Source: a virus
Lineage: Duplodnaviria; Caudoviricetes
IMG/VR virus record: IMGVR_UViG_3300031450_000204
Location: 1-53,593 of that record
Strand: one strand, 5' to 3'
Length of the DNA: 53,593 bases
In this document: piece by piece, positions 11,134 to 39,400 of the stretch
Position numbering within the stretch: position 1 is the first letter of the stretch
Layout of the letters: every line of letters starts with the position of its first letter
Notes under the pieces: model-generated
Told to the model about the DNA's origin: nothing
Seen by the model: only the letters and a program-made list of their open reading frames with translations
Database searches by the model: none
Made by a program: the position numbers and the translations under genes

Positions 11134-11688
11134 ATGGCATCTGACCTGCGCTGCGGCGCCCGGACCCGCGCCGGCGGGACGTGCGCCTACCGTCCGCTTC
11201 CAGGGCAGGTCCGGTGCCGGATGCACGGCGGCCGGACCCCCGCCGCCCTCGCCCGGGGAGCTGAGCGGGTGCTGGAAGCGAAGGTCCGCAAGCTCGTCCC
11301 AGACCATGTGGCCCCGATGGCCAACCCGCTGCTCAGCCTGCTGACGGTGGCCGCCGAGGCGGAAGCGTTCAAAGACGCGCTCCGCAGCCTCGTAGGCGAT
11401 TTGGGTGACCGGATCCGCTACTCCGGCCTGGAGGGCGGTGAGCAGCTCCGCGCCGAGGTGGTGGTCTACGAACGGGCTTTGGACCGAGTCGGCCGGATGT
11501 GCGTCGACATCGCCAAACTCGGCCTGGAGGAAAGGCTGGTCCGGCAGCAGGAAGCGCTAGGCGCGGGCCTAATCACCGTGCTGACCGCAGCGCTGACCGA
11601 GTTGGGTCAGGACCCGGCGGAGGACCGGGTCCGGAGTGTGGTAGCGGCGCAACTCAGCCGGCTTGAGCTGACAGCCGGCGGCCGATGA
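11134..11688 (+). CDS. Terminase small subunit (HGG-motif type)
   Basis: CGARTRAGGTC...RCRMHGG; immediately upstream of large terminase. Confidence 0.75.
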   Translation: MASDLRCGARTRAGGTCAYRPLPGQVRCRMHGGRTPAALARGAERVLEAKVRKLVPDHVAPMANPLLSLLTVAAEAEAFKDALRSLVGDLGDRIRYSGLEGGEQLRAEVVVYERALDRVGRMCVDIAKLGLEERLVRQQEALGAGLITVLTAALTELGQDPAEDRVRSVVAAQLSRLELTAGGR

Positions 11689-13118
11689 GCCTAGCCCCGT
11701 CGCCGTGGCAGATCGCCGCGCGCGCGTTCTCCCAGCCGGCTGTTCCCGCGTTGTTGCCGTGGCGGAAGCAGGCACGGCCGGAGCAGCTGCTCCCCGACGG
11801 CGACTGGCGCACGACCTATTGGCGTGGCGGCAGAGGCAGCGGCAAAACACGCAGCTCCGCGGAAGGTTTCGCTGAGCTGATCCGTGCCAACCCGGCCACT
11901 CCCGAGCACGGCAACGAATGGGCGGTGATCGCCCCGACGTTCGGCGACGCCCGCGACGTCTGCCTCGAAGGCGACTCGGGGCTGATCCGCGCCTTGGGCG
12001 GCAAGTCCGGTGGCGGCCGGCTCGTCGAGAAGGGGCCGCTGATCGCTGCGTGGAACCGGAGCATGGGCCAGCTGTACCTGGTCGACGGAACGGTGATCTA
12101 CGCCGACGGCGCCGACGACGGCGCCCTGCGAATCCAAGGGAAGAACCTGCGGGGCTGCTGGGCCGACGAGATCGGCTTGTGGGTCCGGTGGCGCACCGCA
12201 TGGGACGAGTCGATCAAGTATGCGGTCCGGAAGTACCCGGCGCAGCGGATCGTGTCCGGCACCCCGAAACGCAACATGCCCGCCATCGAACTGGTCCGCC
12301 GGCTGGTCCACGACCCGAACGTCGTCAACCGCCGGCTACGAACCGAGGACAACGCCGACAACCTCAACCCTGCCGCCCTCGCCGAACTGCTCGAAGCGAA
12401 AGGCACCGCGCTGGGGGCGCAGGAACTCGAAGGCGACGTGCTGGAGGAAGCTGAGGGGGCGATGTGGACCCGCGACCCGGCGAAGGCCGATGCGGACCGG
12501 CTCGGGCTGATCGTCGCCGAGCCGGCTCAGATCGACGGTGACGCCGGAACGCTCACGTTCGCCGCTGACGGTCGCACTGTCCGGCTCGGGCGCCGTGTGG
12601 TCGCGCTGGACCCCGCCGAAGGCGAAGGCGACGAACAAGGCCGCGCCGTCGTCGCAGTCGGAGCTGACAAGCGGTACTACGTGCTTCACGCCGCCGGCGA
12701 GCACCTGTCACCCATGGGCTGGCTGCGTACCAGCGTCGGCGTATTCGACCGGTACCGCGGCGACCGGCTCGTCTACGAAAAGAACGGCGCCATGTTCCTA
12801 CGCCCGTTGCTGGAGCAGGAGTTCCCCCAGGTCCCGACCGATCACGTGACGGCAACGCAAGGCAAACGGACCCGGGCCGAGCCGATCGCTGCGCTGTACG
12901 CCCGGCGGATGGTGACCCACGCGATCCTGGCCGGTGAGGACCTCGGCCCGTTGGAGGCGCAGATGACGTCGTTCACCGGCGACCCGGGAGAAGCGTCACC
13001 AGGCCTGGTCGATGCACTCACTTGGTGCATCGCCTACCTGCATGGCATCAGCCGCCCGGCCCGGTCGGTGTCTGTCGCGGCGATGCAGCTCCCGCCGTCG
13101 GGTCCGCGCGGCAGATAG
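11685..13118 (+). CDS. terL: Terminase large subunit
   Basis: GRGSGKT Walker A, CWADE Walker B, GTP coupling motif, VVALDPA nuclease domain, KRTRAEPI, LVDAL. Confidence 0.95.
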   Translation: MSLAPSPWQIAARAFSQPAVPALLPWRKQARPEQLLPDGDWRTTYWRGGRGSGKTRSSAEGFAELIRANPATPEHGNEWAVIAPTFGDARDVCLEGDSGLIRALGGKSGGGRLVEKGPLIAAWNRSMGQLYLVDGTVIYADGADDGALRIQGKNLRGCWADEIGLWVRWRTAWDESIKYAVRKYPAQRIVSGTPKRNMPAIELVRRLVHDPNVVNRRLRTEDNADNLNPAALAELLEAKGTALGAQELEGDVLEEAEGAMWTRDPAKADADRLGLIVAEPAQIDGDAGTLTFAADGRTVRLGRRVVALDPAEGEGDEQGRAVVAVGADKRYYVLHAAGEHLSPMGWLRTSVGVFDRYRGDRLVYEKNGAMFLRPLLEQEFPQVPTDHVTATQGKRTRAEPIAALYARRMVTHAILAGEDLGPLEAQMTSFTGDPGEASPGLVDALTWCIAYLHGISRPARSVSVAAMQLPPSGPRGR

Positions 13119-15496: not shown

Positions 15497-18037
15497 GTGG
15501 CAGGACCGCTCCAGCGCCTCCGGACCGCCTTCGCCCCCCCGCCGCGCCGCCTGCTGACCGCCGCTAGCCGCCCGGCTGCTGCGAGCCTCCCACCAGTCGG
15601 CCAGCTTCCCGTCAACGCGCAAGGCAGCGCAAGTGCGCTCGGCGGCCGCCGGACAGTCGGCCAGGCATGGCAGCTCGACGCCCAGGCCTACTTCGACACC
15701 CTCGGGTGCATCAAATACGCGGCCAGGTATGTGGGCAACGCCTACGCCCGCGTCGTCCTCTACCCCGCCGTCGTCGTCACCGACGACGAGAACCCCGTCG
15801 GCGTCACCGACCTGCTCACCGACGCCGCACCACCATCGCAAGGCGGCGACGGCGAAGGCACCCCGCTGCCGGTCCCCCGCGACCTGCTTGAACAAGCACA
15901 AGTCGAAATGGCCCGCGTCCGGTCAGCGGTTGACGGCCAGGCAGGCATCCTGCGTGACATCGGTGTCAACTTCACCGTCCCCGGCGAGTGCTACGCGTGC
16001 TGCCGCCCCGAAACGGCGACGGCCCGGGAGACGTGGGACATCTACTCGGTGTCGGAGATGGTCCGCCGCGACCCCGACCCGGCGACCGGCGCCGAACGGT
16101 GGGCGCTTCGCGGCGACGGCATGACCCTCGACCGGCCGCTACCCGATGACGCGTTCGTCCGCCGGCTGTACTGGCCGCACCCGTTCCGCAAGCAGCTCGC
16201 CGACAGCCCGCTGCGGGGCATCCTCGACGACCTCGAAGAACTCGCCCTACTCAACCGCAGCATCCGCTCGACCGCGAAGTCCAGGATCGCCGGCTCTGGC
16301 ATCTTCCTCGTCCCGAACGAGCTCGACTACGACGCCGACAACCCTGCCGACCCCGACGGCCTGGACGCGCTGACCCGCGACCTGGCGATCCACCTGCAGG
16401 CCCCCCTGTCCGATGAGGGCTCCGCGGCCAACGTGGTGCCGCACATCCTGCGGGGCCCGTCGGAGCACCTGAAAAACGTCCGGCACCTGCGGTTCGACCG
16501 GCCGATCGACAAAGACCTCGCTGAGCAACGCAAGGAGAAGATCTCAGCGATCGCGATGGGCCTGGAAATGCCACCGGAAGTATTATTAGGAATCGGAGAC
16601 GTCAACCACTGGGGCGCCTACCAGGTGGCGGAGGAGACGTTCAAAGCCCACATCGAACCGGGCATCCTGATGGTCTGCGCCCAGGTCGGGTCGCAGATCC
16701 TCCAAGCGCTGCTGACCGCGCACGACCGGTGGGCGCCAGCTGACGTCGCCCGGATCACCTGCTGGTACGACGCGACCGCGCTGATCAACCACCCCGACCA
16801 GTCCAAGAGCGCGATGGACGCCTACAACGTCATCGAACTCTCCGGCGACGCGCTCCGCAAGTACATGGGGTTCCTCGACGACGACAAGCCGTCCGACGAC
16901 GAGGTCGCTGCTCACATCGAACGGTTCCGCCTGATGCACTCCCGCGGCGCCGAACCGGGCGTCATCCCGACGGGGGATGTGAACGCCCCGGTCGGCAACC
17001 AGGTGCTGCCGACCGGGGTTCCGGGCATGGCTCCGGCGGCAGCGCAGCAGCCGGTCAACCCCGGCATGCCACCGGCCCGGACCGCGCCTACCGGGCCGCC
17101 TGCCCGTACCGCGGCGCTGGTCGCCGCTGCCCGCCAGCCACGCCCGTTGGGCGCGCGGCTCGCCGAACTCGACCAGCGCCTCGCCGCCCGCGTCCAGGGC
17201 GCCGCGGACATGGCGACCCGTCGGCTGCTCGAGAAGGCGGGTGGGCGGATCACGTCGGCGGCGGCGAAGAACCGGGAGCTTGCGGCGACGGCCCGTAGCG
17301 TGCCGAAGGCTCAGGTCGCGTCCACGTTGGGCCGGACTGTCGTCGCGTCGCTCGGCGTCGACGACGCGAGCCTGCTCGACGGTGGCTACGACGAGCTGTT
17401 GGACGACGTCGACGTGTGGGTGGCGCAGACGAGGGACCGGTCCCGGCAGATGATCGCCGGCTGGCTCGCCCAGCACGGCGTGACCGTCTCGGCGGCGGCG
17501 TTGGCCGAGCTCGCCGGCTACGACGACCGGGACTCGGAAGCCGGGCGGCAGGCGCTCATCTCCGGGCTGTTGGGGTATGCGACGGCGCGGCTGTACCGCA
17601 TGGACATGCCCGGCCAGGACTTGGGTGAAGGGTTCGCTGACGGGTCGCTGCCCGCGGGGGTGACCCGCCGGCCGCTGGGGGTGTACGGCGGGCAGGACGT
17701 TGGCCAGGTCGGCAGCCTGGACAGTCGGGGTGCGGTCATCCCGTTGCGGGGCGTCGCCTCCGGCGACCGTCAGCTGTCGTTTCTCGCTTCGAACGGGGCG
17801 ACGACGGGGGCGTGGATGTGGGTGCACGGCAGCCCGCAGCACCCGTTCGAACCCCACGAGGAGCTGGACGGCAGTGTCTTCGGCGACGACCTGGTGGCTG
17901 ACGAGCACCTGCTGGCCAACACGACGGACGCGTGGACAGGGCTGCCGAACTACTCGATCGGCGACCACGACGGCTGCCAATGTTCCGCTGTCGACCTCGT
18001 GATCGCACCCGGTCAGTCCGTGGACCAGGCCGCCTGA
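15497..18037 (+). CDS. Portal protein with C-terminal MuF-like extension
   Basis: ADSPLR, SRIAGSGIFLVPNE, PPEVLLG..NHW actinophage portal motifs; C-terminal W.H...H..LDG..F...HDGCQC. Confidence 0.85.
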   Translation: MAGPLQRLRTAFAPPPRRLLTAASRPAAASLPPVGQLPVNAQGSASALGGRRTVGQAWQLDAQAYFDTLGCIKYAARYVGNAYARVVLYPAVVVTDDENPVGVTDLLTDAAPPSQGGDGEGTPLPVPRDLLEQAQVEMARVRSAVDGQAGILRDIGVNFTVPGECYACCRPETATARETWDIYSVSEMVRRDPDPATGAERWALRGDGMTLDRPLPDDAFVRRLYWPHPFRKQLADSPLRGILDDLEELALLNRSIRSTAKSRIAGSGIFLVPNELDYDADNPADPDGLDALTRDLAIHLQAPLSDEGSAANVVPHILRGPSEHLKNVRHLRFDRPIDKDLAEQRKEKISAIAMGLEMPPEVLLGIGDVNHWGAYQVAEETFKAHIEPGILMVCAQVGSQILQALLTAHDRWAPADVARITCWYDATALINHPDQSKSAMDAYNVIELSGDALRKYMGFLDDDKPSDDEVAAHIERFRLMHSRGAEPGVIPTGDVNAPVGNQVLPTGVPGMAPAAAQQPVNPGMPPARTAPTGPPARTAALVAAARQPRPLGARLAELDQRLAARVQGAADMATRRLLEKAGGRITSAAAKNRELAATARSVPKAQVASTLGRTVVASLGVDDASLLDGGYDELLDDVDVWVAQTRDRSRQMIAGWLAQHGVTVSAAALAELAGYDDRDSEAGRQALISGLLGYATARLYRMDMPGQDLGEGFADGSLPAGVTRRPLGVYGGQDVGQVGSLDSRGAVIPLRGVASGDRQLSFLASNGATTGAWMWVHGSPQHPFEPHEELDGSVFGDDLVADEHLLANTTDAWTGLPNYSIGDHDGCQCSAVDLVIAPGQSVDQAA

Positions 18038-18908: not shown

Positions 18909-20096
18909 ATGGCCCTGTCGATCCAGGAGTCCGACGGCCGGTGGCTGGTCCTGCGCGACGGGGAGCGGCTGTCCGTCCACGACGATGAGATGGCAGCGTT
19001 CACCGCCCTGCGCACCGCACGCGAGCCTGTCGTCGATCCGCTGACCGCAGGGGCCTACCCAGCACCGGTCCGCCCCCCGGCCGGCTGGTTCGCTGATCCC
19101 CAGTTCGATGACAGCACCACCACCGAACACCCCGACTACCCCGGCGTCCGTGGTCGCAGCCTGACAATCCACGACGACGGCCGGGTCTTCGGCCACCTCG
19201 CGCTCTGGGACGTGCCGCACACCGGCTTCCAAGGCGAGAAGATCTACGCCCCGAAGTCGAAGACGAACTACGCCAAGTTCCGCGAGGGGCACGTCGTCAC
19301 CGACGACGGGAAGCAGATCGCTACCGGGCCGATCACCGCCGGGACGGGGCATGCATCGGTTGACCCGCGGAACCCGATCACCGCGACGCAGGCCGTCCGG
19401 CATTACGACGACTCGGGGATCGCCGTCGCCGACGTGGCCGCAGGCGAGGACCGGTACGGCATCTGGGTCGCGGGCACCGTCCGGCCGGGTGTCACCGACG
19501 AGCAGGTCGAAGGCCTGCGCCGTTCCCGGGGCCTGTCGGGTGACTGGCGCGACTACGGCGGCAAACTGGAGCTGATCGCTGCGTTGGCTGTGAACGTGAC
19601 AGGTTTCCCGGTGCCTCAGTACGCCCTCGCCGCCTCGGGTGCTGCCGTATGGGATGGTGACCGGCCGCTCGCCCTCGTCGCCGCCGGCGCCGCGCCGCTG
19701 CTGGCGATGGCGTCGGAGCCGTGGGCGCAGCCGATGGACGAGCTCCGCCGGGACAACGCGTCGCTGCGGGAGACCGTGACGGCGATGCGGGAGCAGCTAG
19801 CGGTCTACCTGCCGGTGCTGCGGCCGATGGTCGCCTCCGCGCAGATCGCCCGCGGTCGGGACGCTGTCACCGCGGCAGCGAAGCCCTACGGCGACGTGAC
19901 CTACGCCGACACCGGGATGCAAGCCGACAAGAAGGCCCGCTACCCGCTGGACACCAAGGAGCACGTCCGGGCGGCCTGGGCCTACGTCAACCAGCAGGCG
20001 AACGCCGCGAAGTACACCGCCCCGCAGCTCGCGACGATCAAGGGCCGGATCAAGGCGGCGGCGAAGAAGTTCAGCGTCGACATCGCGGCCGGCTGA
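18909..20096 (+). CDS. Capsid maturation protease with C-terminal DUF6582-like domain
   Basis: PPAGWF.DP, DDGRVFGHLA.W, HYD, ADV.AGED.YGIW.AG, LSGDWR, LAVN.GFP; tail KPYGDVTYAD..RYPLD..H.RAAW.Y. Confidence 0.85.
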   Translation: MALSIQESDGRWLVLRDGERLSVHDDEMAAFTALRTAREPVVDPLTAGAYPAPVRPPAGWFADPQFDDSTTTEHPDYPGVRGRSLTIHDDGRVFGHLALWDVPHTGFQGEKIYAPKSKTNYAKFREGHVVTDDGKQIATGPITAGTGHASVDPRNPITATQAVRHYDDSGIAVADVAAGEDRYGIWVAGTVRPGVTDEQVEGLRRSRGLSGDWRDYGGKLELIAALAVNVTGFPVPQYALAASGAAVWDGDRPLALVAAGAAPLLAMASEPWAQPMDELRRDNASLRETVTAMREQLAVYLPVLRPMVASAQIARGRDAVTAAAKPYGDVTYADTGMQADKKARYPLDTKEHVRAAWAYVNQQANAAKYTAPQLATIKGRIKAAAKKFSVDIAAG

Positions 20097-20284
20097 TGAC
20101 CCGCCGTCTGCTGGCCCGCCTGGTCAACGTGCTGGTGTTCACGTTCGTCACCCGCGACGAGCTGACCCGCGCCGGCCGCTGGATCTACCGCACAGCGCCG
20201 GTGAAGGCGTTGACGTTGGCTGAGGCCCGTGGCTACCGCAAGGGCTACCACGTCGCCTGCGATAACATGACCCTCGCCAAGTGA
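20096..20284 (+). CDS. Small hypothetical protein
   Basis: TGATG junction. Confidence 0.45.
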   Translation: MTRRLLARLVNVLVFTFVTRDELTRAGRWIYRTAPVKALTLAEARGYRKGYHVACDNMTLAK

Positions 20285-20712
20285 TCCGCCGTCCGCGCCA
20301 CGCCGAGACGCACAAGTCGCCGACGAACCAGGCTGTCTACGCTGCGGCGACCCGCGGTGAGCGGGCAGCGGACCGGACGACGGCAGCGTTCGGGTCGTGG
20401 CAGTTCATCGCCATCCAGACAGCGCTCATCCTCGTCTGGATCGTCTACAACGTCGCCGTCGCAACCGGGGCACTGCAGTTCGACCCGTACCCGTTCATTC
20501 TGCTCAACCTGTTCTTCTCCACCCAGGCGGCTTATGCGGCGCCGCTGATCCTGCTGTCGCAGAACCGGTCAGCTGAACGGGACCGGGTCCACGCCGAAGC
20601 TTCCTACGCCGAAGGCCGTGAGGTGCACCGGCTCGTCGAGGGGCAGCAGACGATCCTGACGGCGATTCACGCGGCGACTGTCGGCCGTGGCGACGGTCCG
20701 CCGCCGATCTAG
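20281..20712 (+). CDS. DUF1003 membrane protein
   Basis: GSW.FI...FDPYPFILLNL..S.QAAYAAPLILLSQNR...RDR. Confidence 0.9.
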   Translation: MIRRPRHAETHKSPTNQAVYAAATRGERAADRTTAAFGSWQFIAIQTALILVWIVYNVAVATGALQFDPYPFILLNLFFSTQAAYAAPLILLSQNRSAERDRVHAEASYAEGREVHRLVEGQQTILTAIHAATVGRGDGPPPI

Positions 20713-20908: not shown

Positions 20909-21057
20909 GGGTCACAGCGTTGTACGTCATCTACTGCCTGCTCGCCGTCGGCAACATCGTGGGCTTAGTCCAAGCGGTTCGCTACGGGGAATTCGGCTGG
21001 GGCGCCCTCGCTGTCACCGGACTAGCCGCATGCGGCTACATGCTGGTCTTCGGGTGA
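20905..21057 (+). CDS. Small two-TM membrane protein
   Basis: Two hydrophobic helices. Confidence 0.5.
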   Translation: MRVTALYVIYCLLAVGNIVGLVQAVRYGEFGWGALAVTGLAACGYMLVFG

Positions 21058-21188
21058 AGGTCTACATCGCGCTCGTCACCTGCGGCTGCTGCCACCTGCA
21101 GCTGACCTTGCGCCACGCCTGGCTCGCCGACGGCGGGTTCGACCGCCGGGTGATGCGGCTGCACCTGCGTCTGTGCGACGGCTGACTG

Positions 21189-21338
21189 TTAGAGCCGGCG
21201 CCACGCCTGGTTGTACGGCCGGAGCAGGCTGCGGGTGACCGTGCGGCGGGCTAGCCGTTTCGGCAGCGTGCCGCGCTTGAGCGCGTCGTAGTCGCCCATG
21301 GTCCTAGAGCTGAGGTACAGCAGCCTGCGAAGGCTCAT
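21189..21338 (-). CDS. Small basic protein (49 aa), last gene of the RAMP cassette
   Basis: AGGAGGAG RBS, ATGA overlap; MSLRRLLYLSSRTMGDYDALKRGTLPKRLARR... Confidence 0.65.
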   Translation of the reverse strand: MSLRRLLYLSSRTMGDYDALKRGTLPKRLARRTVTRSLLRPYNQAWRRL

Positions 21339-21514
21339 CGCTCTCCTCCTGTGAGTAGCCGGTCGATCTCCGACCGGGGGATACGGATCTTGCGTCCGAC
21401 GTGGACCGCGTGCAGGTCACCCCGCTTGACCATGTCGTAGATCGTCCACTTGGCAACCCGCAGCGCGGCGGCAACCTCGTCGACGGTCAGGACCAGCGGT
21501 AGGTGGTCAGTCAC
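21335..21514 (-). CDS. Excisionase-like HTH DNA-binding protein (59 aa)
   Basis: LTVDEVAAALRVAKWTIYDMVKRGDLHAVHVGRKIRIPRSEIDRLL; not in the ORF track, read manually. Confidence 0.85.
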   Translation of the reverse strand: MTDHLPLVLTVDEVAAALRVAKWTIYDMVKRGDLHAVHVGRKIRIPRSEIDRLLTGGER

Positions 21515-22082
21515 CGGACGGTTCCGAGTTAGTGGCAGGCAGCAGCTTCATCAGTTGCTCCAGCCGCTCCAAGCGCTCCGCGTGCTCCTCCGACGTCATC
21601 TCGACAGTCTCGGTCCGCGCGGTGATCGCCGCGACCTTCTCGGCGAGTTTCTTGTTCCTGACGTCGAGCCGCTGAACCATGTCGCTCTGCATCTGGAAGG
21701 CGTAGGCGACGACCTCGAACGCCTTCCGGGTCTCGACGTCGATCTGGTTGAAGTCGACGTTTACGACCTTCGACCGGCCGCGCTTGAGCGCGTGACCTGC
21801 CCTGCGCTGCTGCGCCCGGGCGAGCCCCAGGTGCTCCTTGGCTTGCACCACCCGGTAGCCGACGTTCATGATCGGTTCGATGGCGCGGCGGTCGACCTCC
21901 TCGTGTTCCTTCGCGGCGCGGCGCATCGCCATCTGGATGCCGTGCCGGTCGTCGGCCGGGTCGAGTTCAAGCGCCTCACCGAGCGACTCGTAGGTGAGGA
22001 CGCCGTCGACGGGGGTCCGGTTCAGCAGCTCGTAGACGACGCGCCAGCGGGCCTTGTCTCCGACCGGCTGGAAGGGGCTCAC
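21507..22082 (-). CDS. Accessory protein of the RAMP cassette (winged-HTH-like N-terminus, coiled-coil C-terminus)
   Basis: GTGA-coupled to the RAMP gene; VLTYESLGEAL...AMRRA...NVGYRVV. Confidence 0.75.
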   Translation of the reverse strand: MSPFQPVGDKARWRVVYELLNRTPVDGVLTYESLGEALELDPADDRHGIQMAMRRAAKEHEEVDRRAIEPIMNVGYRVVQAKEHLGLARAQQRRAGHALKRGRSKVVNVDFNQIDVETRKAFEVVAYAFQMQSDMVQRLDVRNKKLAEKVAAITARTETVEMTSEEHAERLERLEQLMKLLPATNSEPSGD

Positions 22083-22669
22083 CGGCCGGCCGGCTCAAGG
22101 GTGACGGTGAACCGGCCGTACCGAGGACGCCAGTCGCCGATGGCGGTGTAGCGGCCGGCGTCGTCGGCGATGGTTCGGAGGTCTTCGAGGTTCAGCTCGT
22201 GGGTGTCGAGCGCGAGCGTGGCCTGGCATGCCCACTGCCGGAAGATCGGCCGGGTCCGCATGATCTTCGAGCTTTTGGACGCGCTGGGGTTGCCGTTCGC
22301 GACGGCCCGGTGCACAAAGTTCGCGTCGGCATAGAGTTCCTCGGCGGTGCGTGGACCCTTGTAGGCGAGGAGGTTCTGGTCCGTGGGTACGAGCACCGAG
22401 CGTTTGACGAGTGCCCCCTTGTTCTGTCGTCCGCCGGCCATCGCCAGGCAGGACAGGATGTTCGCCCCGGGCAGGTAGGGACCTTCGGGGCCGATGTACA
22501 GCCCGGCGAAGAACTCGATCCGCGCCATCACCTCGTGGTCGGCGTCGGTCTTCTTCCTCTTGCCCTTGACCTCGTTGAACGACTGGCTCCAGGTGTTCAG
22601 CGGATCGACCATCTGGCTGTTGTGCATCAACAGCTCCGAGGTCCCCGTCATGGTCATGATCAGGTCCAT
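22079..22669 (-). CDS. Stand-alone RAMP/Cas7-like RNA-binding protein (196 aa)
   Basis: GGAGG RBS; RAMP-like pattern MTGTSELLMH (beta1), PYLPGANILSCL (P.IPG..KG.R equivalent), C-terminal G-loop AIGDWRPRYGRFTV. Confidence 0.75.
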   Translation of the reverse strand: MDLIMTMTGTSELLMHNSQMVDPLNTWSQSFNEVKGKRKKTDADHEVMARIEFFAGLYIGPEGPYLPGANILSCLAMAGGRQNKGALVKRSVLVPTDQNLLAYKGPRTAEELYADANFVHRAVANGNPSASKSSKIMRTRPIFRQWACQATLALDTHELNLEDLRTIADDAGRYTAIGDWRPRYGRFTVTLEPAGR

Positions 22670-22698
22670 CTTTGTTCCTCCACGTTTGGTTGGAACCC

Positions 22699-22743
22699 AC
22701 GCCTGGCCTAGCCGCGCCCCGCCACGCCCCGCCTTGCCGTGCC
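22699..22743 (-). ncRNA. GGC-NN pentamer array 2 (9 units), putative guide RNA in the leader of the RAMP gene
   Basis: Minus strand: GGCac GGCaa GGCgg GGCgt GGCgg GGCgc GGCta GGCca GGCgt, then GGG. Confidence 0.75.
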
Positions 22744-22754
22744 CTGCAATAGAC

Positions 22755-22783
22755 ACCATAGCGTCTCGCGTCGTATGTGACAA
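22755..22783 (-). promoter_or_regulatory. Sigma70-type promoter TTGTCA-N17-TATGGT with operator-like motif (22763-22781) over the spacer and -35
   Basis: -35 at 22778-22783, -10 at 22755-22760; predicted start a few nt before array 2. Confidence 0.75.
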
Positions 22784-22802
22784 GTAACGCGGTGGACAGC
22801 AT

Positions 22803-22836
22803 GAAGGCCCGGCCGGATTTCTCCGGCCGGGCCTTC
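22803..22836 (-). terminator. Perfect 15-bp stem with GAAA tetraloop at the 3' end of array 1
   Basis: GAAGGCCCGGCCGGA-GAAA-TCCGGCCGGGCCTTC; no U-tract. Confidence 0.7.
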
Positions 22837-22854
22837 CCACGCCTTGCCCTTCCC

Positions 22855-22924
22855 ACGCCTTGCCCTGCCCAGCCTCGCCGTGCCCAGCCTCGCCGTGCCC
22901 AGCCTCGCCGTGCCACGCCGCGCC
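22855..22924 (-). ncRNA. GGC-NN pentamer array 1 (14 units), putative guide RNA
   Basis: Minus-strand NN = gc gt ac ga tg ac ga tg ac ga tg ag aa gt; TAGCGT -10-like box at 22934-22939 upstream, hairpin downstream. Confidence 0.75.
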
Positions 22925-22965
22925 GAGGTGCTCACGCTAGACCCGACACGCCGACCGCGTCTACG

Positions 22966-22984
22966 GTCCTGCGCAACAGGCGAC
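22966..22984. promoter_or_regulatory. 19-bp operator-like motif GTCCTGCG-CAA-CAGGCGAC between array 1 and the capsid gene
   Basis: Motif family match; TACTGT -10-like box downstream on +. Confidence 0.6.
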
Positions 22985-23112
22985 GGGATGCGCTACTGTC
23001 CGTCGTAGATCGAGCAGCCGGCCCTTCGAGGGTCTGGCCGCCGGGACGGGCTGTAGAGCCGCCGGGGCGCTCCACCACCCCCGCATTCTCTCGCCTGTCC
23101 CGGAGGATCATC

Positions 23113-25074
23113 ATGGCTGAGCAGACCCCCGACCGGCTGACCCGCATCAACGACCTGTCCGGTCGGATCGGTGAGCTGACCGCCGACGAGCTTGCCGAAC
23201 TCGGCAACCTGCTCGCCGACGAGATCGACGCCGCCGCCTCAGCGGAGCCGACCGACGAGATCCTCGGTCACATCAACACCGTCGCCGACGCCGCGGAGCA
23301 GGTCGCCGCCGAACGGACCCGCCGTGACGAGGTCGCCGCCGAGCAGACCGCGCGACGGGACGAGGCGCTCGGCCGGGCGCAGGCCGCCCGGGAGCGGATC
23401 GCCCCCCCGGCGGCCGCCGTCGAGCAGGCACCTGAGGCGCGGGCCGAGGGTGACCCGGCCCCAGCGGAGACTGCCGAGCAGCGTGAGGCCGTCGCTGCAT
23501 CCGCCAAGCCCAAGCCGATCCGGATCTCCCAAGTCGTCGCCTCAGCCGCCGGCCGCCGCGACCCCGAGCGGGAGCGCCCCGACGACCCCCAGTCCGACGG
23601 CCGGGTCCGCGCGTCGCTCACCGCAGGCGGCACCCCCACCGGGCCGGCACTCGACGCGCAGACCTTCACCGAGTCGTGGGCGCAGCGCCTCGACAGCCTG
23701 CGGCACACCCCACCCTCATCCGACGGCACCCGCGTCGTCGTCGCGTCCGCCCGCTGGGACTACCCCGAGGCCAACGACCTGCGCCACCGCGACGCCGACA
23801 TGGTCACCGAGCGGATGGACAACGTCGTCACCCCGATGGTCGCCTCAGGCGGCATCTGCCGCCCGGTGAACGTGGACTACGCCATTCCGACCTGGGCCAA
23901 CCTGGAGCGTCCCGTCCGGGACAGCCTGCCGTCGTTCCAGGCGACCCGCGGTGGAATCCACTACGTCGTCCCGACCCCGTTCGACATGAGCGTGTTCGGC
24001 CCGGCGGTGGGGATCTGGACCAACGCCAATGACATCAACCCCGGCGGCCCGGGGACCGGCGTCAACAGCACCCGGACCGTCACCGACGGGGTCACTGTCG
24101 TCGGCACGACCCTCACGTCGGCTACCGCCGCGTTCACCTTCGCCGACGTCGGCCGGTCAGTCGCCGGTGGTTCGATCCCTGCTGGCGCGACCATCGTCTC
24201 GGTGCAGTCCGGCACTTCGGTCACCCTGTCGGCTGCCGGGGCCGCCGCCGCGACTGGGGTCACCGTCGCGATCTCCGGTGTCGGTACCGGCCCGACGGTC
24301 AAGCCCTGCATCGAGATGAACTGCGGCACCGAGATGGAGGTGCTGGTCGAGGCCATCACCCAGTGCGTCACCATCAGCAACTTCCGGGCCCGGTTCAACC
24401 CCGAGCAGGTCGCCAACTTCCTGCAGTACGTGGGGCAGGCATGGGCCGTCACCGCCGAGATCGAACTGCTCCGGCAGATGCGCGCGTTCGCCAAGCACGT
24501 GTCCGGGACGCAGCTGTTCGGCTTCGCCCGCGACTCCTTGGTCACCCTCTCGCTGATCAACGCCTACTTCCGGGACAAGTACCGGATGTCGCAGAACACG
24601 ATGCTCCGCGTCGTGCTCAAGCGGTGGGTGAAGGACGCGGTCCGTGCCGACCTGACGAAGGCCGCGTTCCCCTACGAGGGCGGCGACGGCTACAACAGCC
24701 TGTCGGTGCCGGACGCGGCGATCAACCAGTGGTTCGCCGACCGGAACATGGTCGTCACCTGGGCGTTGGACAGCGACGTTGCCGACCAGAACTTCACCAA
24801 CCAGGCACCGGGCACCGTCGCCAACCCGGCGACGCTGGTCGGCTTCCCGGCGGTGACCCGGATGCTGGTCTACCCGGAGGGGACCTACCAGTTCCTCGAC
24901 GGCGGCCAGCTTGACCTCGGTGTCGTCCGCGACTCGACGCTGAACGCGGTCAACAAGTTCCAGATCTTCTCCGAGTCCTTCGAGGGTGTCGCGCCCCGCG
25001 GCTTTGAAGCCCTCGACTTCTCTGCCGTGTTCCGGGTCAACGGCGCCGCAGCCGGCACCGTCGCCCCCGCCTAA
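23113..25074 (+). CDS. Major capsid protein (hexamer type) with fused N-terminal scaffold-like coiled coil
   Basis: GGAGG RBS; ASGGIC.P...Y, PVRDSLP.FQATRGGI, FNPE, GG.LDLGVVRDS.LN..N.F..F.E.FE. Confidence 0.88.
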   Translation: MAEQTPDRLTRINDLSGRIGELTADELAELGNLLADEIDAAASAEPTDEILGHINTVADAAEQVAAERTRRDEVAAEQTARRDEALGRAQAARERIAPPAAAVEQAPEARAEGDPAPAETAEQREAVAASAKPKPIRISQVVASAAGRRDPERERPDDPQSDGRVRASLTAGGTPTGPALDAQTFTESWAQRLDSLRHTPPSSDGTRVVVASARWDYPEANDLRHRDADMVTERMDNVVTPMVASGGICRPVNVDYAIPTWANLERPVRDSLPSFQATRGGIHYVVPTPFDMSVFGPAVGIWTNANDINPGGPGTGVNSTRTVTDGVTVVGTTLTSATAAFTFADVGRSVAGGSIPAGATIVSVQSGTSVTLSAAGAAAATGVTVAISGVGTGPTVKPCIEMNCGTEMEVLVEAITQCVTISNFRARFNPEQVANFLQYVGQAWAVTAEIELLRQMRAFAKHVSGTQLFGFARDSLVTLSLINAYFRDKYRMSQNTMLRVVLKRWVKDAVRADLTKAAFPYEGGDGYNSLSVPDAAINQWFADRNMVVTWALDSDVADQNFTNQAPGTVANPATLVGFPAVTRMLVYPEGTYQFLDGGQLDLGVVRDSTLNAVNKFQIFSESFEGVAPRGFEALDFSAVFRVNGAAAGTVAPA

Positions 25075-27028: not shown

Positions 27029-30016
27029 ATGACTGTCTACGCCGGCCAGTACGGACCGGAAACACTCACCGACACCACCGGCCGGCCCGCGCCGACCGCG
27101 CTGGTCCAGATCTACCAGCCGGGGACGTTCACCCCCGCGACGCTCTACGGTGCCCGGGACCGGTCGGTCCCGCTCACCGCCAACCCGGTCCCGTCCGGGA
27201 TGGCGGTCAACACCCCCGGCCTCGACATCTACGCCAACCTGCTGTTCTTCGCCGACCCGGGTCGCTACGACCTGGTCGTCACCTCCGGCGGCAAGCAGAC
27301 CCGGCTCACCGTCGTCGTCGACGAGGACCCGGCTGAGCCGGAAGTCGGCGGCGGTGGTGGCACGGCCGGTGCGGCCGGCCCGGCGCCGTTCAAACCACCC
27401 GTCCCCTACAACCCGGCCACCACCTACAGCCCGATCTCCGGAGCGACCCCCGCCGATGCGGTGAGCTTCCAAGGCTCGTCCTACGTCGCGGTCGCCGCGT
27501 CGACGGGCGTGCAGCCCGGTACCGACACGACGAAGTGGGCTTTGCTCGCCGGCGGCGGGTCGTTCTACCCGGCGGGGCAAGGCCCGGTCCTGGTCGATGC
27601 GGTGACCGGCGGCAGTGTGCGGCTCGGCGTGTCCAACGGGGCGCTCACCTTCACCCCCGTCACCGGTGCGCAGGCCCCGACCGTCCCCGGCCCGCCGACC
27701 GCGGTGACCGCATCCGCGGGTAACGGGACGGCGACCGTGTCGGCTACTCCTCCCGCGTCCAACGGTGGCGCGGCGATCACCGGATACACCGCCACCTCGG
27801 CCCCGGGTGGGCTGACCGGCACCGCTCCCCCTGGTACCCCGGTCACCGTCGCCGGCCTCGCGAACGGCACCGCCTACACCTTTATCCTCACGGCCCGGAA
27901 CTCGGTCGGGTCGTCCGCAGCGAGCGCCCCGTCCAATTCGGTGACACCGTCGGCGACCGCCAACGTCCCCGGGATCCCCACCGCCCTGGTGGTCACCGCC
28001 CTGTCCCGCACGTCGCTGTCGGTCAATGCCACCGCCCCCGCCAGCGGCGGGTCGGCGATCACCGGCTACACCGCCACGGCGACCCCTGTGTCGACCGCTA
28101 CGGTCCGCGGGTCGTGGGACACCGGCACCGAAGGCTGGGTAGGTCGGGGGTCGGCGCCGTTCGTCACCTGGGACACCGGCACCAAGCACGACGGAGCAGG
28201 GTCGCTGCGCGGCGTCAAGCAGATCACCGCCGCCGACAACTACATCCTGATGTCGGACTACCCGACGGCCACCGCCCGGAACTGGTCGGGTGGCAGCCCC
28301 ACGTTCACCGCATGGGTGAAGGTCGCCGCCGGCGCCCCTGCCGGCACCTACACCGGCATCTTGCGGTTCAACTACGCAGACGGCACCCAAACACAGGCGT
28401 TCGTCGACGTGTCCGACAACGCGTGGCACCAGCTGACGGTCACCGTGCCGACGGCGCAGCTCGCGAACATCGTCCTGGTCGACTTCGAGGTCGACTACGG
28501 CGGCAGCGGGTCGGGCAACGCCACCGTCAACTGGGACACGTTCCTGCAAGGCGCCGGCTCGACCGGAGGGCCGGTGTCGGCGACGGGGCCGGCCCTTCCG
28601 GTCACCGTCGGCGGCCTCGTCCCCGGCGGCCTGTACACCGCGACGGTCCACGCGACGAACAGCGTCGGCAACGGACCTGAGTCGGCGGCGTCGTCGCCGT
28701 CGACCAGCCTGAACATCGTCACCGTGCCGGGAGCACCGACGAGCGCCGGCGCGGCGGCTGGGAACGCCTCGGCGACCGTGTCGGCCGTCGCCCCCGCCGA
28801 CAACGGCGGCAGCGCGATCTTGGACTACACCGCCACGTCCTCCCCGGGAGGCCTGACCGCGACAGCCGCGCCCGGCACGCCGCCTACCGTGACCGGGTTG
28901 ACGAACGGCACGGCCTACACCTTCACGGTCACGGCGCGGAACAGCTCCGGGTCGTCGGCTCCGTCGGCTCCGTCGAACAGTGTCACCCCGACCGCGACCG
29001 CGACCACCAACAACTTCTCCATCAGCCCGTCGGGGCAGATCCTCGACCCCGCCGGGGCGATCTTCGTCCCCAATGGGGTCAACGCCAACGGCACAGACTT
29101 CGTGTGGCAGGGGCCGACGCTGAACCAGAGCGGAAAGGCGCAGAACTGGCGGTTCAACGCGCTGCGGTTGAACTGCGGGCTGCCGGGCGCGGGTGGTGTC
29201 GACAACGGCGGCGGGTACGACTTCCCCGGTGACAGCCTGGCGTCGGTCATCAGCGAGTACACCGCGAAGAAGATCGTCATCAAGCTGGACATGCAGCAGC
29301 AGAACCCCGGCACCTACGCCGCCGGCCAGCGGCTCACCGACATCCAGAACTGGTGGGTAGGGATCGCCAACACCTACAAGGACAACCCCTACGTGTGGTT
29401 CAACCTGTTCAACGAACCGGGTTCGGGCGGCGCGAGCGCGCTCGCGCAGTGGCAGCAGGTCCACCAGCAGGTCGCGGCCGCGATCCGCGCTACCGGCGCG
29501 AAGAACGTGATCGTGATGGACGGCTGCCAGTACGGCCAGGAGACCAACGACTTCGGCTCCGGCCCGGCGCCGACCTCCGGCTCGGCGATCGTCAACTACG
29601 GCGCGAGCATGCAGCAGTCCTACGGCCCGGTCGTGTTCTCCCTCCACGTGTACGCCGCGTGGGGCGGCGGGTCACAAGGCGCGACCAACGCCCAGCTCGA
29701 CGCCCGGCTGAACGGCTTTCTCGACGCGGTGCAGAACGCGAACATCCCGATCATGATCGGCGAGTGCGGCACCCACCCGAACCAGGCCGATGAGCAGCCG
29801 TACGAGATCGGCCAGACCCCCGCCACGCAGTGCCTGTACCGGGTGCTGCCGACGCGGGCGAAGAAGATCGGCGCGATGCCGTGGCACGGCGACGGTGCGT
29901 CGGGCTACCAGCAGGTCACCAACAGCCAGCACTGGTCGGACATCAACAGCCCGACGGCTCCGACGAACCTGACGTGGATCGGGCAGCTTCACTGGAACTA
30001 CTGCCACAGCTTCTGA
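27029..30016 (+). CDS. Modular protein: CBM5/12-like, FN3 repeats, carbohydrate-binding-like domain and GH5 glycoside hydrolase
   Basis: YNPATTY..DAVSFQGSSY..KW; FN3 NGG.AI..YT..LANGTAYTF...ARN..G; GH5 WFNLFNEP, SLHVY, IMIGECG. Confidence 0.85.
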   Translation: MTVYAGQYGPETLTDTTGRPAPTALVQIYQPGTFTPATLYGARDRSVPLTANPVPSGMAVNTPGLDIYANLLFFADPGRYDLVVTSGGKQTRLTVVVDEDPAEPEVGGGGGTAGAAGPAPFKPPVPYNPATTYSPISGATPADAVSFQGSSYVAVAASTGVQPGTDTTKWALLAGGGSFYPAGQGPVLVDAVTGGSVRLGVSNGALTFTPVTGAQAPTVPGPPTAVTASAGNGTATVSATPPASNGGAAITGYTATSAPGGLTGTAPPGTPVTVAGLANGTAYTFILTARNSVGSSAASAPSNSVTPSATANVPGIPTALVVTALSRTSLSVNATAPASGGSAITGYTATATPVSTATVRGSWDTGTEGWVGRGSAPFVTWDTGTKHDGAGSLRGVKQITAADNYILMSDYPTATARNWSGGSPTFTAWVKVAAGAPAGTYTGILRFNYADGTQTQAFVDVSDNAWHQLTVTVPTAQLANIVLVDFEVDYGGSGSGNATVNWDTFLQGAGSTGGPVSATGPALPVTVGGLVPGGLYTATVHATNSVGNGPESAASSPSTSLNIVTVPGAPTSAGAAAGNASATVSAVAPADNGGSAILDYTATSSPGGLTATAAPGTPPTVTGLTNGTAYTFTVTARNSSGSSAPSAPSNSVTPTATATTNNFSISPSGQILDPAGAIFVPNGVNANGTDFVWQGPTLNQSGKAQNWRFNALRLNCGLPGAGGVDNGGGYDFPGDSLASVISEYTAKKIVIKLDMQQQNPGTYAAGQRLTDIQNWWVGIANTYKDNPYVWFNLFNEPGSGGASALAQWQQVHQQVAAAIRATGAKNVIVMDGCQYGQETNDFGSGPAPTSGSAIVNYGASMQQSYGPVVFSLHVYAAWGGGSQGATNAQLDARLNGFLDAVQNANIPIMIGECGTHPNQADEQPYEIGQTPATQCLYRVLPTRAKKIGAMPWHGDGASGYQQVTNSQHWSDINSPTAPTNLTWIGQLHWNYCHSF
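27785..27936 (+). repeat. 152-bp exact direct repeat, copy 1 (FN3 domain)
   Basis: Identical to 43578-43729. Confidence 0.9.
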
Positions 30017-32704: not shown

Positions 32705-33223
32705 ATGGCCGACCTGATCGAGTTCGACTACGAGGAGCCGGAAGGCGCGGACGCTGACAGCGAGTACGAGCCGATCGTGCTGCGCATCCCGTTCAAGGAC
32801 AAGACCGGGAAGATCGGCCACGAGGACTTCACCTGCCGACCCGAGATCCCGTTCGGTGTCCTCATCGACCTCGAGTCCGCCGCCTCCTCCGCCGGCATCC
32901 AAGAGTTCCTCAACACGGCACTGCTCGACGATGACGGCGAGCTGGACGCCGACGGTGAGCCCGTCGAGGACACGTCGAGCGTGGACCGTTACGACGCGCT
33001 GGTCCACGACCCGGCCCGCAAAGTCCCCGGCCCTCTGTTGGGGAAGGTGTTCAACGGGCTGTACGAGGAGTACGGCCGCCGCCACGGCTCGGGTGAGGCC
33101 AACCGCCCTACACGGCGAGCCGTGCGCTCACAGGCGCGGCCGCGGCGGACTGGCAGTACCTCGACGGCAAAGCTCAACGGGAAGGTGTCGACCTCCGCTC
33201 GCTCCCGGCAGGCCGCGGGCTGA
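32705..33223 (+). CDS. Tail assembly chaperone (short form)
   Basis: GGGAG RBS; position before tape measure; ends YG...RPT. Confidence 0.8.
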   Translation: MADLIEFDYEEPEGADADSEYEPIVLRIPFKDKTGKIGHEDFTCRPEIPFGVLIDLESAASSAGIQEFLNTALLDDDGELDADGEPVEDTSSVDRYDALVHDPARKVPGPLLGKVFNGLYEEYGRRHGSGEANRPTRRAVRSQARPRRTGSTSTAKLNGKVSTSARSRQAAG

Positions 33224-33444
33224 ACGTGGTCTACAGCCTGCTCGTCGACGACACCTGGCGGGCCATGCAGTCCGAGAAGGACGCAGGCCCCGCCGACGCA
33301 CGCACCAAGGTCGACGAGCACCTCGCCGCTGTCGGGGCGCAGGTCGGGGGTTCCACGTCGCCGGGCCGGCGGGGGAAGCCGGATCCGGCGACGTGGGGTT
33401 GGACTCCCAGCCCGGATGCCGACACCCCACCGGGCCTGTCATGA
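33109..33444 (+). CDS. Tail assembly chaperone -1 frameshift extension
   Basis: -1 frame open from 33097 reads YTASRAL..DWQYLDG...GVDLRSLP..R.LNVVY. Confidence 0.7.
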   Translation, partial: YTASRALTGAAAADWQYLDGKAQREGVDLRSLPAGRGLNVVYSLLVDDTWRAMQSEKDAGPADARTKVDEHLAAVGAQVGGSTSPGRRGKPDPATWGWTPSPDADTPPGLS

Positions 33445-36400: not shown

Positions 36401-39400
36401 CTTTAACCGTATCAAGACTGACGTGTCGAATATCGTCACTGACATTCTCGCGTTTATCGACAGGCACTGGCGACTGCTGCTCGTCATATTCACCGGACCG
36501 ATCGGTCTGGTGATCGTCATAGTTGACTACTTCCATAAGCAGATCGGCGCATTCTTTACGCAAATGTGGCACGACGTGTCCGGCTTCGTCGAGCGCATGT
36601 GGCATGACGTGACGACCTTCTTCCACGTCGGCGCGCTCGCCGTAGCCGCAATCGCCGCCAGTTCGTATCAGGCCGTGACCGGTTTCGTGATGCGGATGCG
36701 CGACGACGTGAATACGTTCGTGTCTCGGATGTGGCACGACGTGACCGGCTTTTTTTACGTGGGCTGGCTGGCTGTCACCGCAATTGTCACTAGCTTGTGG
36801 CGAGACGTGACGGCCTGGGTCACGCGCATGTGGCATGACGTGTCCGGGTTTGTGGTCCGAATGTGGAATGACGTAACCGCCTTTTTCCACGTGGGATATC
36901 TAGCGGTTATCGCGATAGTCACCAGTCTGTGGAATACAGTTGTCGACCTGTTTACCCGCCTATGGCATGACGTGACCGGGTGGGTCACGCGAATGTGGAC
37001 CGACGTGACCACGTTCTTCCACGTGGGCGCGATGGCCGTCACGGCAATCGTCACGAGCCTGTGGCGGACGGTCGTAGACCTGTTCACCCGTCTGTGGACC
37101 GACGTGTCCAACTGGGTGACCCGCATGTGGCACGACGTGATCACCTTCATCATGCGCATGGCTGTGGACGCGTGGGACATCGTCCGCCCGTTCGTCACGC
37201 GGATCGTCGGCGGATTCGGCGACCTGTGGACCGGGGCCACGGGGTTCGCGAGCCGACTGTGGCACGACGTGGCCGGGTTCTTCGGCCGGATGCGTGACGA
37301 CGTCGTCGGCATCTTCGACGACCTGGTGACCAAAGCGGGCCAGGTCTGGGACCGGGTCAAGGACCTGGTCGCGGTCCCGATCCGCTGGGTGATCGAAAAC
37401 CCGTACGACAAGGGCATCGTGCCGCTGATCCGCGGCATCGGCGACATCCTGCACGAGCCGGGGATGCAGAACCTCGCGCCACTGCACTTTGCTGGTGGTG
37501 GCGCGGTCCCCGGCAATCACGACCGGGACGACGTGCCGCTGTACGGCACCCCCGGCGAGGTCATGGTCGACAAGCCAACTGTCGCCCGGCACGGCGGACC
37601 CAACCTCCTCATGCGCGCCCTCGGCATGACCGGTGGTGGCGGTACGGGCGGGCACTACGCGGTCGGCGGCCCCGTCCTGCCGCCCGGCCTCAACTTCCAG
37701 GGCCTCTCCAGCTTCAACCCCAACAGCCTCCAGGGGAGCCTCACGGCAGGAACGGCTACCGGCGCGGCTGCCGGCCGCCAGTTCGTCACCAAACAGGACG
37801 CGCTGCGCATCTCCGGCGGCAAGGCCGACACCGGCATCCTCGGCCGGATCGTCCACGACATCGCCCACCCGACCGACCTGCTGGGTGATTTGAAGAAGTT
37901 GGCCCTCGGTGCTCTGGCGATCGGCGCCACCCCGGTCGTTCACACCATCGAAGGTGCGGCCGACGGGGCGCTGAAGAGTCTGGGTGAGCCGGGCCGGTGG
38001 ATGGACAAAGAGGTCCACAACATCGGCGATGCGCTGCTGTCGTTGCTGGCCGGTAAGGACGCCGCCTACAACGCGGCTCAGGCCGCCGCGGCGGCCGCGG
38101 GGGGCGGCGCTGGGCTGCTGCAGGTCGGTAACGGCACCGACATCGTTAACGACGCCCGCAAGTACCTCGGGCAGCAGTACATCCTCGGCGGCGACCCGTA
38201 CGGCGGCGGCGGTACAGACTGCTCCGGCCTCGTCGACAGGGTAATGGCCGACCTGGGCCACAAGCTGCCGGGCCGGCCGCTGACGTGGGACCTCGTCAAG
38301 ATGGGCACCGCGGTCAACTACGCCGACGCCCTGCCTGGCGACCTCGTGTTCACCAACTACGGCGAGGGCGGCATCCCCGGTCCCGGCCACGTGGGGATTT
38401 ACGAGGGCGGCGGTCGGATGATCGACGACCCGAACCCGTCGAGCCACGTCCGTGAGGAGGCTGTCTGGGAGACGCCGGGCGCGGTCCGCAGGCTGCTGGT
38501 CGACCACCTGCCGACGGCGGTTGCTGCGGCTGCGGTCAACGGTTCGTGGGCCGACGTTGTCTATCAGGCGTTGAAGATGGAGAACCTGCCGGCGTCAGCC
38601 GCCGGTGGTGTGCTCAGGCTGATCCAGTCCGAGTCCGGCGGGGACGCAAACGCGCAGAACAACTGGGACTCGAACGCCCGTGCGGGGACGCCGTCGCAAG
38701 GGCTGATGCAGCTCATCCCCGGCACGTTCGCGGCGAACCACTGGCCCGGGACGTCGGACAACATCCGTGACCCGCTCGCGAACATCGCCGCCGGCATCAA
38801 CTACGCGGTGAAGACGTACGGCATCGGGATGCTGATGGGCGGCGGGCGGCACGACGGCACCGGCCGCTACGTCGGCTACGAGCAGGGCACGATGTTCGTC
38901 CCGTCCACCGGGCCGGCCACTCTGCACCAGGGTGAGATCGTCATTCCCCGTGGCCCGTCCGACACGATCCGGCAGCACATGGCGACCGGTGGGGTGGTGC
39001 ATCACCCCCGGCACCACCTGACGCACCACCCGCTTCATCACGCCGCTCACCATGCCGCCGCTCACCACGCCAGCTCTTATGCGGCGTTGTACCGGCATGC
39101 GGTCGAGCTGTACGCCAAGCTCATCACCGACCAGCTGCATCACCTGTCTCCTGCGACTATCCGCTCCGACATCGCGCGGATCGCGGTGGCGAACAGGGCC
39201 GCTGATGTCGCGCGAGGCCATCCCCTTGCGCACCATCACGCCACGCATCACCTTGCGCACCACCGTCTGCACCACCCCGCGCATCACCTCACTCACCACC
39301 CGCACCATCACGCAGCTCACCACCCGCATCACGTCTTGCACCCGCACCACCCGCTGCACCCCCATCACCGGGTGCTGCATCCCCACCACCCGCTCCACCA

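Follow-up and report, generated by a model that had tools for sequence, protein, structure and literature searches.

VIPR systems, named for Viral Interference Programmable Repeat, were described in 2026 preprints (10.64898/2026.04.26.720920, 10.64898/2026.04.26.720927, 10.64898/2026.10.15.759431). In Escherichia phage SUSP1, which carries a type II system, the repeat array is transcribed, co-purifies with the Vipr protein and has been seen bound by cryo-electron microscopy (10.64898/2026.04.26.720920, 10.64898/2026.04.26.720927). A second protein, Vap, was needed in vivo in characterised VIPR, and in the characterised clades most targets were satellites and resident prophages (10.64898/2026.04.26.720920). 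Under the target rule, successive variable dinucleotides (NN) of the guide match DNA with a 1-nucleotide (nt) skip, written (NNx)n, with agreement at no fewer than 80% of NN positions. The present work concerns a locus of the virus record IMGVR_UViG_3300031450_000204, a record of 53,593 base pairs and 69.7% G+C that was analysed over its whole length (the window). This locus is very probably a VIPR system, most like type II, carried as a moron-like leftward cassette in the head-gene block of a temperate siphovirus of a high-GC actinobacterium. Its parts, with the guide RNAs called vrRNAs as in the published systems, are as follows.

22853-22927, minus strand: predicted guide tract of vrRNA1 (array 1), 15 perfect YNNGG (C-NN-GG) units, read from the sequence and by a run scan
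22837-22852, minus strand: 16-nt repeat of the last array 1 units, one base off the pentamer register, read from the sequence
22803-22836, minus strand: predicted 3′ tail of vrRNA1, a 15-bp GC-rich hairpin with a GAAA loop, found by folding
22755-22783, minus strand: match to a sigma-70-like promoter, with 17 nt between TTGTCA and TATGGT, a short way upstream of array 2
22697-22746, minus strand: predicted guide tract of vrRNA2 (array 2), 10 perfect YNNGG units, read from the sequence and by a run scan
22670-22696, minus strand: stretch joining array 2 to vipr, read from the sequence as a short GUUCC/GGAAC stem in which the GGAGGAAC ribosome-binding site lies
22079-22669, minus strand: vipr, encoding a 196-residue RAMP protein homologous to SUSP1 Vipr (phrog_4652)
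21507-22082, minus strand: vap-like gene, 191 residues, its start overlapping the vipr stop (GTGA, 4 nt)
21335-21514, minus strand: 59-residue helix-turn-helix (HTH) protein of the excisionase family, overlapping vap by 8 nt
21189-21338, minus strand: basic open reading frame (ORF) of 49 residues that matched no family; its overlap with the HTH gene is 4 nt (ATGA)

An earlier note, made by a model from the letters of this stretch alone, had proposed a leftward cassette that interrupts a rightward head module and holds two arrays of GGC-NN pentamers, a 196-residue gene and three translationally coupled small genes. A gene scan recovered the cassette in that position, both arrays stood up to comparison with surrogate sequences, and the four leftward ORFs proved to be intact, with start/stop overlaps of 4, 8 and 4 nt in order.

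The arrays are perfect in all 25 of their 25 units, and the pyrimidine is a cytosine in every one (25/25). In 200 first-order Markov surrogates of the window the longest run averaged 3.6 units and ranged from 3 to 5, against the 15 units observed, which marks the arrays as real and places them well outside what chance produces. Elsewhere in the window, on both strands, a single further run of at least 4 units was found, 4 units long and within a coding region (27568-27587, plus strand). The NN series of array 1 is TC GC GT AC GA TG AC GA TG AC GA TG AG AA GT and that of array 2 is AG AC AA GG GT GG GC TA CA GT, with 8 different dinucleotides in each guide. The block AC-GA-TG occurs three times in array 1 as a 15-nt unit, which Tandem Repeats Finder (TRF) reports with a period of 15, while the 16-nt out-of-register stretch, judged by its letters, looks like a duplication of the array/tail junction. 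Two minus-strand ORFs that cross the arrays (273 and 75 residues) were considered as genes and rejected as by-products of high GC content and the repeat, because the homologues of Vipr align from residues 1-5 of the protein that starts at the ATG at 22669, 7 nt downstream of a GGAGG.

The 196-residue protein is a Vipr homologue with a RAMP fold and GGY-binding residues. Among solved structures its sequence matches PDB entry 36pp, “SUSP1 Vipr protein”, with an E-value of 8.4e-25 (residues 5-193 against 6-191). According to the description of the SUSP1 structure, H17 and D177 contact the first G of the GGY, R138 and W178 the second G, and R179 the Y at the third position, while K33 touches the target backbone (10.64898/2026.04.26.720927). 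H17, R138, D177, W178 and R179 align here with H16, R140, D179, W180 and R181, so that all of the scaffold contacts described there are kept; across 39 aligned homologues H16, R140 and D179 are invariant and R181 is nearly so. An AlphaFold2 model built on the 39-homologue alignment (mean predicted local distance difference test, pLDDT, 93.4; predicted template modelling score 0.87) has a beta-alpha-beta core, the C-terminal IGDWRPRYGRF loop, and a strand pair at residues 119-143 with a tip of lower confidence that was read as thumb-like. When this model was compared by Foldseek with a copy of the PDB that predates the VIPR entries, the top matches listed were all Csm3 or Cas7 proteins of type III and type VII complexes (e.g., 5yjd and 6ae2), with a best E-value of 1.2e-5, template modelling scores of about 0.45-0.52 and 73 hits at E <= 1e-3. 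PHROGs places the protein in phrog_4652, a family with no assigned function, and Pfam, PADLOC and NCBIfam hold no model for either Vipr or its Vap-like partner.

Homologues of this Vipr are widespread. A large protein collection returned 190 at E <= 1e-3, two of which are 91% and 83% identical and of the same 196-residue length; the loci of these two were not returned by viral, metagenome or genome scans. By tblastn, vipr was found in 130 phage records, including Felixounaviruses, Pseudomonas phages and cultured actinophages, and it is annotated as “hypothetical protein” in MakoManhole, Trine, LittleE and prophiBWHA-1. For the neighbourhoods, 33 homologue loci were compared, those of phage records, IMG/VR and metagenomes together with those of a single Streptomyces genome; a few of them are the same contig taken twice. 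All 65 perfect YNNGG runs of at least 5 units in these loci are on the vipr strand, and the opposite strand has none; at least one run occurs in 21 of the 33, while the 12 that lack one are for the most part short or truncated contigs. Of the available loci, that of a Streptomyces prophage (L033) comes closest, with a Vipr 51% identical and a Vap-like homologue 52% identical; its vipr is followed by the Vap-like homologue and by an array of 7 units that a GC-rich hairpin closes, all inverted between the portal and terminase genes.

The Vipr homologue, its RAMP fold, the strand-specific arrays and the Vap-like partner together lead to the assignment of the locus as a VIPR system. Much of this had been anticipated: the earlier note read a RAMP/Cas7-like layout in the 196-residue protein, which the AlphaFold2 model and its Foldseek matches bear out, and pointed to a likeness to VIPR that the full-length match to SUSP1 Vipr now substantiates. 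The note further proposed that one protomer binds each GGC of the repeat RNA and that the NN positions together form a discontinuous guide, a reading that the assignment to VIPR supports. Its expectation of pentamer arrays beside homologous genes agrees with the strand-biased runs just given. It had also reported no CRISPR repeat-spacer array and no cas genes, and indeed TRF found no CRISPR-like repeat-spacer array in the window and a Pfam scan of 42 window ORFs found no Cas family. The type II-like label rests, for its part, on likeness to SUSP1 Vipr and to the gene in the vap1 position of phage wV8.

That wV8 gene bears on the second protein of the cassette. The model of the Vap-like protein (pLDDT 79.7) shows an N-terminal helix-strand-helix-helix-wing arrangement, winged-helix-like over residues ~12-80, followed by a 65-residue helix (116-180). 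This gives weak support to a winged-helix-like N-terminal domain, a reading that fits the DNA-binding Vap proteins reported for type II systems. The protein has 195 homologues, one of them 94% identical and found in a relative that carries a close Vipr, and it aligns with neighbour genes of actinophages in a 7-sequence alignment. A tblastn search placed a Vap-like homologue downstream of vipr at 6 of 35 loci: in 5 of them it is directly adjacent, and in Trine it comes after the array. A profile built from these proteins matched wV8 gp94 with an hhalign probability of 76.7% (E 2.1e-5 over 111 columns; pairwise BLASTP E 3e-5). This gene of a Felixounavirus stands directly after vipr, in the vap1 slot, and the wV8 Vipr scores like the SUSP1-type ones. 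With the closest relatives set aside, conservation is higher for the Vap-like protein (top hits 55-63% identical) than for Vipr (45-53%). In the wV8 locus (L034), direct repeats annotated “DR_4” flank vipr and gp94 (2250-2307 and 3643-3700), and they sit where a SUSP1-like locus would have vrRNAs or their tails.

The two arrays differ in what surrounds them. The 140-nt region of array 1 folds with a z-score of -4.7, and 0 of 200 shuffled sequences were as stable, because of the terminal hairpin. This GC-rich hairpin is likely the 3′ end or terminator of vrRNA1, and an analogous one occurs in Streptomyces-prophage relatives (L033 and L006); vrRNA1 seems to form a unit of its own that ends at the hairpin. 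A promoter consensus scan of 21000-23200 returned 1 site, the one upstream of array 2, where 0.1 would be expected from shuffled sequence. As array 2 adjoins the GGAGGAAC ribosome-binding site of vipr, it would form the 5′ leader of the vipr transcript, and vrRNA2, being continuous with the vipr mRNA, would then have to be cut off or else act as a leader.

The 59-residue protein matches HTH_17 (E 2.1e-15) and TIGR01764 (53.7 bits vs a cutoff of 28.8). Neither its gene nor the 49-residue ORF has a homologue in the 35 other vipr loci searched, and both are therefore regarded as local additions. Contigs of relatives came from four other rock-metagenome runs, produced in other studies; they cover the locus at ~85-99% identity and were placed at 80% likeness, so that they serve as hints and not as proof. 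One of them joins 21351 to 22931 (depth 11.8; shorter side 79 letters) and lacks 1579 nt: the two arrays, vipr and vap are gone, and so is almost the entire HTH gene. The cassette therefore behaves as one insertion/deletion unit, the 49-residue ORF staying with the backbone; because it lies outside the missing stretch, this ORF may belong to the phage backbone rather than to the cassette. The arrays themselves show unit-scale changes in others of these contigs: array 2 with a duplication of 35 nt, array 1 shortened by 5 nt and, in one low-depth contig, different GCC-NN units where array 1 stands. Both of the listed substitutions in array 2 (22720 and 22729) fall on NN positions, which is weak evidence.

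The surrounding genome has a siphovirus layout, as read from PHROG and Pfam scans of the window ORFs, with these landmarks.

3517-5486: RecE/RecT-like genes
6867-7691: DNA methylase
11685-13118: large terminase
15497-18037, plus strand (rightward): portal
18909-20096, plus strand (rightward): protease/scaffold-like gene
23113-25074, plus strand (rightward): major head protein
32856-40139: tape measure
52736-53593, minus strand: tyrosine integrase, running off the right end of the record

A major tail protein and an endolysin-like gene were recognised by the same scans. The phage is taken to be temperate because the genome carries a tyrosine integrase within this layout, and the leftward cassette sits amid the rightward portal, protease/scaffold-like and major head genes. 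No near relative was found among 50,697 phage records, and the portal is at best ~33% identical to known actinophage portals; nearly the whole stretch is present in two rock-metagenome runs, which may be where it comes from. Among the runs listed as containing the stretch none is an RNA run, a result that says nothing for or against expression. The window contains no tRNA, and no Rfam family matched it or five homologue loci. Between the head protease-like gene and the VIPR cassette lies a DUF1003 membrane-protein gene (20281-20712, plus strand; E 4.1e-30), an unusual passenger for a head-gene block. Farther off, a 12-nt repeat of ~33 copies (690-1088, plus strand; TRF score 494) lies inside an ORF ending at 1172 and encodes AARD, AAGD, AAWD and AARV four-residue repeats of a ~384-residue protein with no assigned function. 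A 995-residue protein of the tail region (27029-30016, plus strand) has fibronectin type III and glycosyl hydrolase family 5 (cellulase) domains and, on this domain content, may be a virion-associated polysaccharide depolymerase.

Targets of the two guides were sought under the (NNx)n rule. No self-target occurs in the window, where the best scores were 20/30 for guide 1 and 14/20 for guide 2, close to the averages of shuffled guides (18.5 and 14.1) and short of the highest shuffled scores (22 and 16). This absence agrees with the published VIPR systems, which are likewise reported to be without self-targeting (10.64898/2026.04.26.720920). In IMG/VR, the exact full-guide patterns of both guides gave 0 hits, and four half-guide seeds (16 fixed bases) gave 11, 4, 10 and 3 hits that upon extension reached at most 22/30 and 18/20; these seed hits are at chance level, and many of them, those with the highest scores, are in low-GC phages. 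When up to 3 mismatches were allowed, guide 1 had no match in any of 401 Streptomycetaceae genomes, which are a sample rather than the known host, and none in the L033 genome. The fetched homologue loci, taken as targets, gave at most 19/30 and 15/20. Probably the host's mobile elements are not in the collections that were searched.

Several results weigh against the assignment to VIPR. No natural target was found in the IMG/VR, Streptomycetaceae or homologue-locus scans, and the consensus scan of 21000-23200 found no promoter for array 1. No significantly stable tail follows array 2, whose fold is not better than shuffled sequence (z -0.44). Lysine 33, which contacts the target backbone in SUSP1, aligns here with N32 and is not conserved. 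As for the Vap-like protein, Foldseek gave no match at E <= 1e-3, its weak rows being nearly all winged-helix DNA-binding domains, and no similarity was found to the corresponding neighbour gene of Pseudomonas phage LESphi2. The missing target is also what would be expected if the system works and its guides act instead on host genes or on close phage relatives, in superinfection exclusion or control of lysogeny. Such a use would suit a temperate phage with an integrase at 52736-53593 and a co-transcribed excisionase-family HTH gene, whose cassette brings a sigma-70-like promoter of its own into a block of late genes, and related phages with and without the cassette do occur in the rock-metagenome runs of other studies. 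It is nonetheless rather unlikely, considering that the characterised clades mostly target satellites and resident prophages (10.64898/2026.04.26.720920), that guide 1 was absent from all 401 sampled Streptomycetaceae genomes at up to 3 mismatches, and that the genome of the phage itself has no match to either guide.

A decaying or orphaned cassette, whose arrays and gene were inherited but no longer work together, would likewise lack a target, and it would account for the register-breaking 16-nt duplication and the triplicated 15-nt block of array 1 as well as for the unit-scale insertions and deletions in relatives, one of which is without the cassette. Four intact and translationally coupled ORFs, conserved contact residues and 25 perfect units out of 25 are hardly what decay leaves behind, and Viprs of 196 residues that are 91% and 83% identical exist in public data, one such relative having a Vap-like protein 94% identical; this explanation is very improbable. 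Still more remote is the idea that the arrays act as DNA, for instance as iterated sites for the Vap-like or the HTH protein, even though two proteins of DNA-binding type are encoded beside them. The 65:0 strand bias relative to vipr favours an RNA-level role, none of the 35 other loci, which still have arrays, contains the HTH gene, and the SUSP1 array is, by the published accounts, transcribed, co-purified with Vipr and bound in the cryo-EM structure.

If the locus is a VIPR system, it should work along the following lines. By analogy with the SUSP1 and P. fulva systems, the arrays would give rise to two vrRNAs, of which vrRNA1 would end at the GC-rich hairpin and vrRNA2 would arise from its own promoter, continuous with the vipr-vap-HTH mRNA. 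Vipr protomers would polymerise on the repeats, about one per GGC-NN unit, flipping out the GGC and presenting the NN pairs. The resulting filament would then bind double-stranded DNA at (NNx)n sites and block transcription there, with Vap helping, and the likely targets would be a competing prophage, a satellite or a superinfecting phage of the same host. It is also conceivable, though distinctly doubtful, that the cassette of this actinophage lineage is self-limiting and tied to lysogeny. Under such a scheme, a Vipr filament on its own vrRNA2 leader, which stops a few bases short of the ribosome-binding site, could occlude that site and feed back on the supply of Vipr, the plain hairpin tail would double as a terminator for vrRNA1 in a design simpler than the SUSP1 pseudoknot, and the co-translated HTH protein would be a lineage-specific third component that links the silencing of rivals to the control of excision or immunity.

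Further observations concern the cultured actinophages with homologous loci. T-loop-like GGTTCGANTCC motifs lie beside the arrays, on the vipr strand, in the loci of MakoManhole, Trine, LittleE and prophiBWHA-1, at these positions.

L001: 1672, 3005 and 3123
L002 (Trine): 3606, 3727 and 3836
L003 (LittleE): 2757, 2892 and 4356
L004: 2888

These motifs may be processing signals. ARAGORN called one odd tRNA-like gene in Trine (L002 3789-3857), and “tRNA” is a word that the VIPR discovery preprint never uses in its main text. In two of the phages, coding sequences annotated as “hypothetical protein” overlap YNNGG arrays: Trine gp40 (L002 3591-4394) covers an array at 3631-3695, and LittleE gp35 (L003 2548-2937, opposite strand) covers arrays at 2657-2716 and 2802-2851. 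Both are probably mis-annotations or have mis-called starts; the Trine Vap homologue begins only near L002 3978.

The locus adds a complete VIPR system from an uncultured temperate high-GC actinophage that is distant from sequenced phages. Moreover, cultured Gordonia and Mycobacterium phages (LittleE, Trine, MakoManhole and prophiBWHA-1) carry unannotated Vipr-Vap loci; these phages can be propagated on laboratory strains and would make VIPR open to testing in actinobacteria. The locus opens no new question: the mechanism, the targeting code and the biological role are already given in the 2026 preprints.

Among known systems, the solo (orphan) vrRNAs of satellites and VIPR-null phages (10.64898/2026.10.15.759431) share the GGYNN kind of repeat RNA with this locus. 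They share as well the loss or gain of a vipr-vap segment among close relatives, to which the 1579-nt skip corresponds here. The arrays of the window differ from them in accompanying an intact vipr, and the relative's contig lost arrays and genes together, leaving no solo vrRNA.

Cas7 and Csm3 proteins polymerise on guide RNA with a fixed period. With the Csm3 of type III-A and the Cas7 proteins of types III-D and VII, the Vipr of the window has in common an RRM-based RAMP fold, a glycine-rich loop and a thumb-like hairpin. Sequence identity to them is only 8-15%, and this genome showed neither a CRISPR array nor cas genes in the scans. The guide logic differs too, since a 5-nt repeat code offers 2 guide bases per protomer here, whereas Cas7 holds a contiguous spacer with every sixth base flipped. 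The locus would work like a Cas7 backbone filament but is no member of CRISPR-Cas.

Closer are the Vipr-Vap loci of actinophages and Streptomyces: MakoManhole gp78/77 and Trine gp41 in Gordonia phages, LittleE gp34/33 and prophiBWHA-1 gp43/42 in Mycobacterium phages, and L033 in Streptomyces. Their Viprs are 35-51% and their Vap-like proteins 27-52% identical to those of the window, and the arrays share the strand of vipr. LittleE and L033 likewise have the locus inverted among structural or packaging genes, and in L033 and L006 an array is likewise followed by a GC hairpin. On the other side, none of these actinophage or L033 loci has the HTH or 49-residue genes, L033 has a single array that lies downstream of vap, and the T-loop-like motifs found beside the arrays of the Gordonia and Mycobacterium phages are absent from the VIPR locus of the window.

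Finally, type II VIPR, as known from SUSP1 and the Pseudomonas fulva prophage, is the described system that the locus most resembles, although not in every respect. This Vipr is ~29% identical to the SUSP1-type Vipr by tblastn, has N32 in place of K33, and occurs in a high-GC actinophage setting. A plain GC-rich hairpin tail stands where the SUSP1 clade has a pseudoknot, a distinction drawn from the published description. Both arrays are upstream of vipr with none downstream, the proximal one abutting the vipr ribosome-binding site, and the operon includes the extra excisionase-family HTH gene. Against these differences stand a homologous Vipr in which the GGY contacts are conserved, YNNGG arrays whose 10 and 15 units fall within the published range of 9-16, the position of a predicted vrRNA upstream of vipr, the pairing of vipr with a gene whose Vap-like product is predicted to bind DNA, carriage by a phage, and guides that spare the phage's own genome.

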